Shown: positions 26,699 to 50,336, counted from the stretch's first letter. The stretch is DNA of 64,000 nt from Escherichia coli (GCF_050920415.1 NZ_CP169309.1), one strand, 5' to 3'. The notes: generated by a model from the sequence alone, not told the origin. A program made the numbers and translations.

Positions 26699-26869
26699 TA
26701 AATAATTGGCTTTCGGAGCTATAACCAGCTGTTTATTAAGAATTTTATACTTTATCGCCATGAAGGCGCACCCTATGTGATCTTCATCACACAGACGTAA
26801 TGGGAACGTTCTCTTCACTGACTTTTCGTCTTACTGTGTTGCCGCATTTTCAGCAACCGGAGGTCAGTA

Positions 26870-27421
26870 ATGAGCACAGAAAAAGAAAAAATGATTGCTG
26901 GTGAGTTGTATCGCTCGGCAGATGAGACGTTATCTCGCGATCGCCTGCGCGCTCGTCAGCTTATTCACCGATACAATCATTCCCTGGCGGAAGAGCACAC
27001 ATTACGCCAGCAAATTCTCGCTGAATTATTCGGTCAGGTGACAGAGGCTTATATTGAGCCAACGTTTCGCTGTGACTATGGCTATAACATTTTTCTCGGC
27101 AATAATTTTTTCGCCAACTTCGATTGCGTGATGCTTGATGTCTGCCCTATTCGCATCGGTGATAACTGTATGTTAGCGCCAGGTGTTCATATCTACACGG
27201 CAACACATCCCATCGACCCTGTAGCACGTAATAGCGGTGTTGAACTGGGGGAACCCGTCACCATCGGTAATAACGTCTGGATTGGCGGACGCGCAGTCAT
27301 TAACCCTGGTGTGACCATTGGTGATAACGTCGTGGTAGCCTCAGGTGCAGTTGTCACAAAAGATGTCCCGGACAATGTTGTCGTGGGCGGTAATCCAGCC
27401 AGAATCATTAAAAAATTGTAA
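26870..27421 (+). CDS. maa: Maltose O-acetyltransferase (183 aa), hexapeptide-repeat family
   Basis: Left-handed beta-helix hexapeptide repeats near the C-terminus. Confidence 0.9.
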
Positions 27422-27536
27422 CCTGTTTTTCGCAACTGTTATGCAAAATCGTGGCAAATCTGTTACTTTCCCTCTACTATTCCCACGTTAAAATAGGGTG
27501 TTCCCTGGAAAGTTGCAGATACCACGAAGGCAAACG

Positions 27537-28007
27537 ATGACCGAAATACAACGCCTGCTGACCGAAACGATTGAGTCTCTGAATACCCGCGAAAAACGCG
27601 ACAACAAACCCCGCTTTAGTATCAGTTTTATCCGTAAACATCCGGGGCTGTTTATCGGTATGTACGTTGCTTTTTTTGCCACCCTGGCGGTGATGTTACA
27701 GTCCGAAACGCTGTCAGGCTCTGTCTGGCTACTGGTTGTATTATTTATCCTGCTTAATGGTTTCTTCTTTTTCGATGTCTACCCACGCTACCGCTATGAA
27801 GATATCGACGTGCTGGATTTCCGCGTTTGCTATAACGGCGAATGGTACAACACGCGCTTTGTACCTGCCGCGCTGGTTGAAGCCATCTTGAACTCTCCGC
27901 GTGTCGCGGATGTTCATAAAGAACAACTGCAAAAAATGATCGTCCGTAAAGGTGAACTGTCTTTTTACGATATTTTTACCCTCGCTCGCGCCGAATCAAC
28001 ATCTTAA
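27537..28007 (+). CDS. ylaC: Inner membrane protein YlaC (156 aa)
   Basis: Start [15 protein letters not shown] chosen for K-12 length; two hydrophobic segments. Confidence 0.7.
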
Positions 28008-28164
28008 GTTAGGGTTACATACCAGGCGTAAAGCTCTGCGCCTGGTCAAATGACAACGTTCGTTTCCACCCATCTCTTCATGAAATCCCGGCTCTACCTC
28101 CTTATCTCCTGCCAGCCTTTTTCCACAATCAGATATACTTTCCCTACACTGTGTTAATAAGGAT

Positions 28165-32535: not shown

Positions 32536-33822
32536 TTACGCGTTATAGGCATTTTCGCCGTGGCTGTTGACGTCCAACCCTTCTCGCTCCTGTTCTTCCG
32601 GTACACGCAGACCAACCGTCAGATCCGCCAGTTTGTAGCCAATAAACGCCACCACACCGGACCAGACAATCGTAATGGCAATGCTTTCCAGCTGTACCAG
32701 CAACTGATGGCCCATCGTCACACCTTCAGCGAAGCCCACGCCGCCCAGCGAGCTGGCGGCAAAAATCCCGGTCATGATACAGCCGACAATGCCACAAACG
32801 CCGTGCACACCGAAAACATCGCAGGGATCATCCACCCGCAGCAAGCGTTTGAGCATGGTAACGCCCCACAAGCCCGCCAGACCAGCTACCACGCCGATAA
32901 TCAACGCGCCGCCAACACCAATGTAGCCACAGGCTGGCGTCACGCCGACCAGACCGGCAATCGCGCCTGAACACGCTCCCAGCAGTGAAGGCTTACCACG
33001 CAGCGCCCATTCACCGAAGATCCAGCCAAGAATTGCCGCCGCCGTTGCGACCACAGTATTCACAAATGCCAGTGCTGCGATTTCATTCGCCGTGCCCGCT
33101 GACCCGGCGTTAAAGCCAAACCAACCGATATAGAGAATGGCAGTACCGGTAAAGACCATCGGCAGGTTGTGCGGTTTAAACGCCTCTTTGCCGAAGCCCA
33201 CGCGTTTGCCAATTAGATATGCGCCCACCAGACCTGCAATTGCGGCGTTAATGTGCACCACCGTGCCACCCGCAAAATCCAGCGCACCGTGAGAAGCCAG
33301 CAAACCGCCGCCCCAGACCATATGCGCAATCGGAATGTAAGAGAGCGTCAGCCACACCACCACGAAAATCAGCACAGCTGAGAAGCGGATCCGTTCCGCC
33401 AGCGCCCCGACGATCAAGCCTACGGTAATGCAGGCAAACGATCCCTGAAACGCCACGTGGATATACTGATAAATGCTGCCCATCACCGCCGTCAGTTCGA
33501 TGTTTTTCAGCATCAACCAGTTAATGTTGCCAAAGAAGTTGTTGCCCTCACCAAACGCCAGCGAGTAACCGTAAACCACCCAGAGAATACAGACCAGTGC
33601 AAACGTCACCGTCACCTGCGTCAGCATCGACAGCACGTTTTTGCCGCGAATTAACCCACCGTAAAACAGGGCAATCCCCGGAATAGTCATAAACAGCACC
33701 AGCGCAGTACAAATCATCATAAACGCATTGTCGGCTTTATCGGCCACCGCAGGTGCAGCCATTACCAGTCCCGGCAGCATCGCCAGTGAAGCAAGCCCAG
33801 TTTTTATCGTCGCTATCTTCAT
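32536..33822 (-). CDS. amtB: Ammonium channel AmtB (428 aa)
   Basis: Signal peptide plus 11-TM Amt fold; downstream of glnK. Confidence 0.95.
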   Translation of the reverse strand: MKIATIKTGLASLAMLPGLVMAAPAVADKADNAFMMICTALVLFMTIPGIALFYGGLIRGKNVLSMLTQVTVTFALVCILWVVYGYSLAFGEGNNFFGNINWLMLKNIELTAVMGSIYQYIHVAFQGSFACITVGLIVGALAERIRFSAVLIFVVVWLTLSYIPIAHMVWGGGLLASHGALDFAGGTVVHINAAIAGLVGAYLIGKRVGFGKEAFKPHNLPMVFTGTAILYIGWFGFNAGSAGTANEIAALAFVNTVVATAAAILGWIFGEWALRGKPSLLGACSGAIAGLVGVTPACGYIGVGGALIIGVVAGLAGLWGVTMLKRLLRVDDPCDVFGVHGVCGIVGCIMTGIFAASSLGGVGFAEGVTMGHQLLVQLESIAITIVWSGVVAFIGYKLADLTVGLRVPEEQEREGLDVNSHGENAYNA

Positions 33823-33851: not shown

Positions 33852-34190
33852 TTACAGCGCCGCTTCGTCGGCTTCGCCGGTACGAATACGAATGACGCGT
33901 TGCAATTCAGCGACGAAGATTTTGCCGTCGCCAATTTTTCCGGTGTAAGCCGCTTTGCTGACGATATCGATCACTTCATCGAGTTGGTCATCAGCAATCG
34001 CCACATCAATTTTTACTTTTGGCAGAAAGTTGACGCTGTATTCCGCCCCCCGGTACAGCTCGGCATGCCCTTTCTGACGCCCGAAACCTTTCACTTCGGT
34101 GACGGTCAGGCCCTGAATACCAATGGAAGATAACGCTTCACGAACGTCTTCCAGCTTGAATGGTTTGATTATCACGGTCACCAGCTTCAT
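33852..34190 (-). CDS. glnK: PII nitrogen regulatory protein GlnK (112 aa)
   Basis: Starts MKLVTVIIKPFKLEDVREAL; T-loop RGAEY with the uridylylation Tyr. Confidence 0.95.
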   Translation of the reverse strand: MKLVTVIIKPFKLEDVREALSSIGIQGLTVTEVKGFGRQKGHAELYRGAEYSVNFLPKVKIDVAIADDQLDEVIDIVSKAAYTGKIGDGKIFVAELQRVIRIRTGEADEAAL

Positions 34191-34242
34191 AGATCCCCTC
34201 CGGTCAGAATTCGGTAATGGTTCTGCTACACGAATAAGGTAT

Positions 34243-34258
34243 TGCAAGCGGTGTGCCA
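34243..34258 (-). promoter_or_regulatory. Sigma54 promoter of glnK-amtB (TGGCAC-N5-TTGCA)
   Basis: Minus strand reads TGGCACACCGCTTGCA, an exact -24 GG / -12 GC match, about 53 bp upstream of the glnK ATG. Confidence 0.85.
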
Positions 34259-34311
34259 GAAATGAAAAACGAGAAAGAGAGCAGGAAGTTAAGAAGATTG
34301 AAAACAAAAAC

Positions 34312-34351
34312 GCACTATGACAGTGCACAGTGCGTTACATTTTTGCACCAA
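34312..34351 (-). promoter_or_regulatory. Probable NtrC enhancer sites upstream of the glnK sigma54 promoter
   Basis: GCAC-N7-GTGC palindrome at 34312-34326 and TGCACCA at 34344-34350; resembles the NtrC site TGCACC-N5-GGTGCA. Confidence 0.45.
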
Positions 34352-34370
34352 CGATGAAATATTGCGCTAT

Positions 34371-37917
<3,547 letters not shown>

Positions 37918-41240: not shown

Positions 41241-41936
41241 ATGAAACGTGCTGTCGTTGTGTTCAGTGGAGGCCAGGATTCCTCCACCTGTCTGGTGCAG
41301 GCATTACAACAATATGATGAAGTCCATTGCGTGACGTTCGATTACGGTCAGCGACATCGCGCGGAAATCGACGTGGCACGCGAACTGGCGCTGAAACTGG
41401 GGGCACGCGCGCATAAGGTTCTTGATGTAACGCTGCTCAACGAGCTGGCGGTCAGCAGCCTGACGCGTGACAGCATTCCGGTGCCTGATTATGAACCTGA
41501 AGCTGATGGCATCCCGAATACGTTTGTCCCTGGACGTAATATTTTGTTCCTGACACTGGCGGCAATATATGCGTATCAGGTAAAAGCAGAAGCCGTAATT
41601 ACCGGCGTCTGCGAAACGGATTTCTCCGGTTACCCGGATTGCCGCGATGAGTTTGTGAAAGCACTAAACCATGCCGTCAGTTTAGGCATGGCGAAAGATA
41701 TTCGTTTTGAAACGCCGCTGATGTGGATTGATAAAGCGGAAACCTGGGCGCTGGCTGATTATTACGGCAAACTAGATTTAGTCCGTAACGAAACGTTGAC
41801 CTGTTATAACGGCATTAAAGGCGACGGTTGCGGTCATTGTGCGGCGTGTAATTTACGCTCCAACGGTTTGCATCATTATCTGGCCGATAAACCGACGGTG
41901 ATGGCAGCGATGAAGCAGAAAACCGGGTTGAAGTAA
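41241..41936 (+). CDS. queC: 7-cyano-7-deazaguanine synthase QueC (231 aa)
   Basis: PP-loop SGGQDS and C-terminal Zn-binding cysteines (CGHCAAC). Confidence 0.9.
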
Positions 41937-42472: not shown

Positions 42473-42905
<433 letters not shown>

Positions 42906-50124: not shown

Positions 50125-50303
50125 TTCCGTCTCCTGGATAAAATTGAAAAAACCTGCTGTACCGATTGTAACCTTATGGACGGATTATCAGCTAGTCCCT
50201 GTGTTATGGGTACGGCATCACCATATTTCAAGCATAACAATCTTTTGTTGTTACGCTAACACCGAAAGAGGCTTTTCGCACGGTTCCATGCAAAATTCAT
50301 GAC

Positions 50304-50336
50304 AAAAAAAGGCCCACCACCTGGCGGTGATGGGCC
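50304..50336 (-). terminator. Rho-independent terminator after tig
   Basis: GGCCCA...TGGGCC stem followed on the minus strand by a T-run (plus-strand A-run 50304-50310). Confidence 0.75.

Follow-up and report, generated by a model that had tools for sequence, protein, structure and literature searches.

Which elements of the spacer between mdlB and glnK control the glnK-amtB operon of Escherichia coli, and could the palindrome that it carries have more than one use? Within a stretch of 64,000 nucleotides of an E. coli genome (GCF_050920415.1, NZ_CP169309.1; hereafter, the window), a sequence-only reading had placed at 34243..34351, on the minus strand, a sigma54 promoter with NtrC-like sites further upstream, the architecture expected of an operon controlled by nitrogen limitation. 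On re-reading the sequence we found its coordinates, strand and distances all to be right. The corresponding promoter of E. coli K-12, glnKp, was reportedly characterised by van Heeswijk et al. in 1996 and by Atkinson et al. in 2002.

The mdlB-glnK junction

The genes and the translation signal that frame the spacer are as follows.

32536..33822, minus strand: amtB, ammonium transporter (428 aa), second gene of the operon (NCBIfam equivalog NF007947, RefSeq annotation)
33852..34190, minus strand: glnK, PII-2 nitrogen regulator (112 aa) (NCBIfam equivalog NF007946, RefSeq annotation)
34194..34201, minus strand: Shine-Dalgarno (SD) sequence of glnK, GGAGGGGA, read from the sequence and sufficiently conserved to serve as the anchor of a scan for related loci
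34371..36152, minus strand: mdlB, SmdB-family ABC exporter, the gene upstream of glnK (NCBIfam NF008056 on the C-terminal part, RefSeq annotation)
36145..37917: mdlA (RefSeq annotation of a 100%-identical genome)

The names glnK and amtB proved correct. GlnK scored 236.8 bits against NF007946 (cut-off, 181) and AmtB 880.5 bits against NF007947 (cut-off, 657), and the RefSeq annotation gives the gene order mdlB, glnK, amtB. We took gene coordinates in the window from the annotation of strain MFDS1022581, which is 100% identical over 401 bases around the spacer. The spacer itself spans 180 bp on the minus strand, from the mdlB stop codon (34373..34371) to the glnK ATG at 34190, and the 401-base region was matched in 5423 of 5426 complete E. 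coli genomes, always at the mdlB-glnK junction. Elsewhere in the window, the annotation of the 100%-identical genome NZ_CP169399.1 shows an IS2-family (IS3-like) transposase at approximately 26831..28059, between ylaC and pdeB.

K-12 MG1655 carries the same locus (glnKp, b0450-b0451), and its spacer differs from that of the window by four substitutions, none of which falls in the sigma54 core, the NtrC-like palindrome (and the box that includes it), the half-site or the ribosome-binding (SD) site. The differences affect a T-run (TTTTCATTTT in K-12, TTTTTGTTTT in the window strain), position 34235 (-3 of glnKp, within a CT-rich anti-SD segment; A in the window strain, C in K-12) and a single further base of the spacer. 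The 60 other Escherichia-type loci that we fetched all agree with K-12 in having C at 34235.

The sigma54 core promoter

Two features define the core of the promoter.

34243..34259, minus strand: sigma54 (RpoN) core of glnKp, CTGGCACACCGCTTGCA, with the -24 GG at 34257..34256 and the -12 GC at 34245..34244
34232, minus strand: predicted transcription start, 42 nt before the glnK ATG, from the spacing rule of Bonocora et al.

The exact TGGCAC-N5-TTGCA element claimed for this locus is present base for base at 34258..34243 of the minus strand, where TGGCAC (34258..34253), the spacer ACCGC and TTGCA (34247..34243) follow one another and the final A lies 53 bp from the glnK ATG. This 16-mer occurs once in the 64 kb, against 0.07 copies expected. 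We also scored the element, as had been proposed, with a sigma54 position weight matrix (PWM) built from 40 ChIP-bound motifs (Bonocora et al., 2015, Table 1), leaving out the glnK motif and the clpP site that lies in the window. It reached 16.58 bits, a score at the 57th percentile of true sites and second in rank in the window; 21% of random 64-kb sequences contain an equal score somewhere. By itself the motif is thus suggestive; together with its position it is convincing.

The matrix ranked two other motifs close to that of glnK. The top score in the window (16.63 bits) belongs to CTGGCATTATTAATGCT at 42661..42677 of the plus strand, antisense inside ybaV, a motif that is identical in K-12 and that the published tables of sigma54-bound sites do not list; this is a good motif left unbound or else a site below the threshold of the study. 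The third rank (15.21 bits) went to TTGTCATGAATTTTGCA at 50289..50305 of the minus strand, in the tig-clpP spacer, an exact copy of the sigma54 ChIP-seq site OS02 upstream of clpP.

The position of the core is conserved across genera. All the enterobacterial loci fetched except one carry TGGCAY-N5-TTGCW, and each of 14 Enterobacterales loci has a core with no more than one mismatch whose end lies 43-88 bp upstream of the ATG. With the start placed 19 bp downstream of the motif centre (the rule of Bonocora et al.), the distance from predicted start to ATG was 41-44 nt in nearly all of 64 distinct related sequences. A search of the mdlB-glnK spacer for a sigma70-like promoter found none. The 2015 EcoCyc listing gives the glnK promoter as "predicted".

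NtrC-like sites upstream of the core

Upstream of the core we distinguish three further features.

34260..34300, minus strand: looping spacer between enhancer and promoter, T- and CT-rich, with CTTCCTGCTCTCTTTCTC at 34288..34271
34311..34327, minus strand: main NtrC box (enhancer or UAS, candidate bases), TGCACTGTCATAGTGCG, centred near -87 and including GCAC-N7-GTGC
34344..34360, minus strand: second, weak NtrC-like site centred near -120, of which only the right half, TGGTGCA (34350..34344), matches

Both sequence elements attributed to NtrC by the earlier reading are there. The GCAC-N7-GTGC palindrome (GCAC at 34326..34323 and GTGC at 34315..34312 of the minus strand) lies 54 bp upstream of TGGCAC, and the TGCACCA half-site of the plus strand is the TGGTGCA of the minus strand, up to 92 bp upstream. 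The palindrome belongs to a 17-bp box that matches the NtrC consensus TGCACCAnnnTGGTGCA at 10 of 14 specified positions, with four mismatches. Sites with four mismatches number 32 in the window, where 32.6 are expected, and approximately 0.08 would be expected in a stretch the size of the spacer. Because the box is not enriched over chance, we rejected the sequence match as sole evidence for it; the caution with which the NtrC sites had been graded as a weaker match than the sigma54 element was justified. Support for the NtrC-like sites comes from conservation and experiment rather than from the consensus match, and the placement of NtrC at these exact 17 bp, which draws on consensus, conservation and low-resolution ChIP, is to be read as a prediction.

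The closest match to the NtrC consensus in the window lies elsewhere, inside the 5' end of queC (TCCACCTGTCTGGTGCA, 41283..41299, plus strand, two mismatches), with a four-mismatch site (41305..41321) 22 bp from it.

The second site lies approximately 33 bp upstream of the main box, and its left half has no consensus match. Another register, TGCAAAAATGTAACGCA at 34347..34331, would centre the site near -107 with five mismatches. TGGTGCA was conserved to at least 90% in an alignment of 32 enterobacterial sequences, and Citrobacter retains an NtrC-type box 33 bp upstream of the main one. Upstream of glnK in six loci of other Proteobacteria (L025, L055, L056, L063, L067 and L009), we observed overlapping pairs or triplets of NtrC-like boxes that are offset by 13 bp and have TGCA in common; the E. 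coli half-site (34360..34344) and the alternative box (34347..34331) show the same 13-bp offset.

For conservation we relied on the glnK loci of 79 species, fetched by protein match, and on 120 more enterobacterial contigs, which were anchored on the glnK ribosome-binding region alone in order to avoid a bias toward the enhancer. In each of the 14 Enterobacterales species, a TGCACnnnnnnnGTGCG-type box precedes the sigma54 core. The orthologous boxes of other genera have one to three mismatches and are often nearer the consensus than that of E. coli, as in Superficieibacter (TGCACCAGCATGGTGCG, one mismatch). Under strict criteria, the composite of sigma54 core and box was found in 25 of the 79 proteobacterial glnK upstream regions and in 4 of 2407 control segments drawn from the same loci. 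Among 32 distinct enterobacterial sequences, the TGCAC and GTGCG arms of the box never change, and the dyad shows zero covariation, with five of its seven pairs never varying. The phylogenetic footprint thus bears out the palindrome and the half-site alike as conserved elements, and part of the conservation of the box could stem from a hairpin that overlaps it.

The distance between box and promoter is also constrained. Relative to the start, the box is centred at -87 in E. coli and at -97, -108, -119, -130 or -141 in other lineages, six spacing classes that follow a period of 10.8-11 bp (R = 0.98; 6 of 20,000 random sets did as well). Such helical phasing is what one expects of an activator that is confined to one helical face if it is to touch the polymerase across a short loop. 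When we searched the spacer for the IHF consensus WATCAANNNNTTR, allowing at most one mismatch, we found no site. A distal CT-rich region of glnKp has been described (bioRxiv 10.1101/086108).

A terminator-like hairpin overlaps the main NtrC box

The same stretch of DNA could also form a structure in the mdlB transcript, to which the sequence-only reading had made no reference.

34301..34336, minus strand: terminator-like element, composed of a hairpin (34336..34309) and a T-run (34310..34301), overlapping the main NtrC box

The hairpin, AACGCACTGTG-CACTGT-CATAGTGCGTT, has an 11-pair stem (5 G-C pairs) and a 6-nt loop, is followed by the T-run TTTTTGTTTT and starts 34 nt past the mdlB stop codon, on the same strand. 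A terminator scan reported it at 34336..34300 as AACGCACTGTG-CACTGT-CATAGTGCGTT followed by TTTGTTTTC, and the centroid of the predicted RNA fold is exactly the 11-bp hairpin, at -14.1 kcal/mol. Its axis differs from that of the NtrC dyad: the box is made up of the last two bases of the stem, the loop and the descending arm. The region also contains a perfect 7-bp tandem repeat, GCACTGT GCACTGT (34320..34333, minus strand), in which the left half of the NtrC box occurs a second time, providing the hairpin with its upstream arm; the corresponding sequence of Citrobacter and E. albertii is GCACTAT GCACyGy.

We lean slightly toward a dual use of the palindrome region, as an NtrC enhancer in the DNA and as a Rho-independent terminator of mdlA-mdlB in the RNA, a reading that extends the promoter assignment rather than replacing it. 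Besides the geometry and fold of the hairpin and its location just past mdlB, this reading draws on conservation. Essentially all of 56 distinct blocks contain the hairpin and the T-run, most of them with free energies of -13 to -20 kcal/mol; 93.8% of the cells in the hairpin alignment are paired, and the four T that open the T-run do not vary. A compensatory pair (C-G in 25 sequences, U-A in 6) has its 5' partner in column 22, outside every candidate NtrC box, and none of 500 shuffles matched the count of double changes. Furthermore, the invariant CAC of the NtrC box sits in the hairpin loop, where a terminator does not require it. Taken together, the patterns make it probable that the box is constrained by a sequence-specific protein, and the upstream arm and T-run by an RNA hairpin that would most simply be the mdlB terminator.

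Several observations weigh against a dual use. The compensatory pair is the only one and probably arose just once, in the Escherichia/Citrobacter lineage, and the fold of the 81 nt around the hairpin has a z-score of only -1.96. The upstream arm could be conserved as a third, weak NtrC box, and the T-run could alternatively be a DNA bend for looping. Yersinia and Rahnella have the NtrC box without the T-run, and a simple scan for a separate mdlB terminator in these two genera detected none, so that the junction may not need one; Photorhabdus has a separate hairpin after mdlB. Our literature search returned nothing relevant on an mdlB-glnK terminator and no Term-seq or other 3'-end data for the junction. 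An Rfam search of the spacer yielded no RNA family; the sole match, to a snoRNA, lies inside glnK and is of no significance (E = 0.57).

The more specific proposal is that, in Escherichia, Citrobacter, Enterobacter and Klebsiella-type genomes, these approximately 36 bp (34301..34336) act both as the mdlAB terminator, in RNA, and as the principal NtrC box of glnKp, in DNA, one operon's terminator having been taken over as the enhancer of the following operon or having fused with it. We put it forward with slightly more doubt than belief. Between genera, the spacer tolerates changes in length only as whole helical turns. If the proposal is true, NtrC~P bound during starvation could also block polymerases that come in from mdlB or modulate the terminator. 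The overlap of enhancer and terminator is probably a modest refinement of a known promoter.

It is very unlikely that the palindrome is the mdlB terminator and nothing else, with NtrC acting instead at TGGTGCA or at a site inside mdlB near -289. Such a reading could accommodate the chance frequency of four-mismatch sites like the main box, and the mdlB-internal sequence, with three mismatches, is conserved in E. albertii and Citrobacter. However, TGCAC and GTGCG are invariant down to the bases in the loop, and boxes nearer the consensus persist in Yersinia, Photorhabdus, Rahnella and Pseudomonas, all of which lack the T-run. Nor would a terminator impose the helically phased spacing to the sigma54 core. 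We examined the mdlB-internal site (GACACCATTCTGGTGCT, 34513..34529, minus strand, approximately 289 bp upstream of the glnK start) as a candidate enhancer and rejected it: it is probably a coincidence because it is coding sequence (…DTILVL…, in the ABC domain), which explains its conservation otherwise.

Probable insulation from mdlB read-through

A further element of the spacer bears on transcripts that enter it from upstream.

34232..34239, minus strand: proximal CT-rich segment CCTTATTC, an anti-Shine-Dalgarno "insulator" just upstream of the predicted transcription start

When transcribed from upstream, the glnKp core silences the downstream gene via CT-rich anti-SD segments (Levy et al., bioRxiv 10.1101/086108). 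Most important among them is a CT-rich stretch of 7 nt centred at -4, mutations of which relieve the silencing (bioRxiv 10.1101/086108). In the window, the sigma54 core has the same CT-rich segments on either side, and our folds reproduce the sequestration of the SD only for the read-through RNA. In the predicted folds, the SD GGAGGGGA was unpaired with a probability of 0.60 in the transcript from the predicted start and of 0.09 in the read-through RNA, where it is sequestered because it pairs with CCTTATTC. The A at 34235 of the window strain weakens the predicted read-through stem from -25.0 to -21.1 kcal/mol and leaves the SD paired. The words "terminator" and "mdlB" are absent from the study of Levy et al. 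(bioRxiv 10.1101/086108), which did not consider an upstream terminator. The hairpin would add to the anti-SD segment a second barrier that insulates glnK-amtB at an earlier point.

Binding and expression data place the promoter under NtrC control

Published experiments address the locus directly. The sigma54 ChIP-seq site OS03, assigned to glnK, has the motif CTGGCACACCGCTTGCA and a start predicted 42 nt from the ATG (PMC4591121), and genomic SELEX (gSELEX) peaks in the mdlB/glnK spacer were obtained with the RpoN holoenzyme, with NtrC and with both together, the same 17-mer being given (PMC8743547). The comparison with the known E. coli promoter that the earlier reading had suggested therefore comes out as identity, since the 17-mer of the window is the one reported in both studies. 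In N-starved cells, glnK-amtB is peak 1 of the NtrC ChIP-seq (PMC4066584). The interval, 471741-471821 in the old K-12 numbering (PMC4066584), falls on the promoter and 5'UTR, between 40 and 100 bp downstream of the box; such an offset is within the resolution of ChIP-seq, but the peak does not prove the position of the box. ChIP-exo and RNA-seq likewise place glnK in the NtrC regulon (PMC9853098).

Expression follows NtrC as well. A glnG deletion left glnK mRNA not readily detected, and complementation brought it back (PMC4066584), which contradicts the NtrC-independent expression that had been named as grounds for refuting the assignment. The promoter has been described as a pure reporter for NtrC~P activity, 400-fold higher under starvation, with glnK activated late and needing more NtrC~P than glnA (PMC3870243). 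The orthologous Salmonella promoter rose under N limitation from 1.1 to 1778 Miller units (approximately 1600-fold) in a sigma54-dependent manner (PMC3844500), and a sigma70 promoter was not predicted for Salmonella glnK-amtB (PMC3844500). Sigma54 and NtrC binding, glnG-dependent mRNA and the sigma54-dependent Salmonella reporter together support nitrogen-limitation control of the operon, as the sequence-only reading had expected.

Least probable of all, to the point of being hardly credible, is that the sigma54-like element is non-productive or coincidental and that glnK owes its expression to a different promoter or to read-through from mdlAB: non-productive sigma54 motifs and binding sites are indeed numerous in E. 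coli (PMC4591121), the ybaV motif at 42661..42677 scores as high and is missing from the published bound sites, and about a fifth of random sequences reach the same score, but this reading is already contradicted by the published data, with ChIP-seq and gSELEX binding at exactly the glnK motif, glnK mRNA that strictly depends on NtrC and a Salmonella reporter that depends on sigma54, and also meets a spacer in which we found no sigma70-like promoter, a position held constant before the ATG across genera, and a terminator-like hairpin and anti-SD element that oppose expression by read-through.

The promoter of glnK-amtB is thus a real finding that had been read correctly and was already known in E. 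coli.

A model for glnKp

We regard this locus as almost certainly glnKp, the single sigma54-dependent, NtrC-activated promoter of glnK-amtB. As we envision its operation, sigma54-RNA polymerase would occupy the -24/-12 region (34259..34243) in a closed complex unable to start transcription alone. When nitrogen is scarce, NtrB would phosphorylate NtrC, and NtrC~P would bind the enhancer, that is, the 17-bp box near -87 and the weak half-site some 33 bp further upstream. Oligomers of NtrC~P would then reach the polymerase by looping the short, phased DNA and spend ATP to open the promoter, with transcription predicted to begin approximately 42 nt before the glnK ATG. Read-through from mdlB would probably be kept out of glnK-amtB by the hairpin terminator and the CT-rich anti-SD segment. 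The weakness of the E. coli box fits the reported need of glnK for higher levels of NtrC~P than glnA, so that the promoter would fire only on real starvation. Which bases NtrC contacts, which register the second site has and exactly where transcription starts are predictions that we infer from the sequence.

The accepted picture of nitrogen control is unchanged by these results, which may nonetheless be of use to those who work with glnKp, which is routinely employed to report NtrC activity and to build synthetic enhancers. A likely terminator shares DNA with the enhancer box, and the distance between box and promoter is limited to whole helical turns. Furthermore, constructs cut between the mdlB stop codon and the box may drop an insulating element.

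Comparison with known promoters

The closest likeness outside E. coli is the promoter of Salmonella Typhimurium STM0462, which has an orthologous sigma54 core, TGGCACATCCTTTGCA, with N5 spacer bases that differ from those of E. coli, and for which dependence on NtrC and N limitation has been demonstrated with a reporter (PMC3844500). Within E. coli, the promoter resembles glnAp2 in combining a sigma54 -24/-12 core with an upstream NtrC site and a second one, putative in glnKp, approximately three helical turns away, and both promoters are activated by looping without an IHF site. The NtrC sites of glnAp2 are at -108 and -140, a spacing of 32 bp (PMC1865078), whereas the main box and putative second site of glnKp are at about -87 and -120. 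The enhancer of glnKp is nearer its promoter, and with a four-mismatch box and a half-site it is a much poorer match to the consensus than that of glnAp2. Finally, glnKp lacks both the overlapping sigma70 promoter (glnAp1) and the "governor" sites that distinguish glnAp2.
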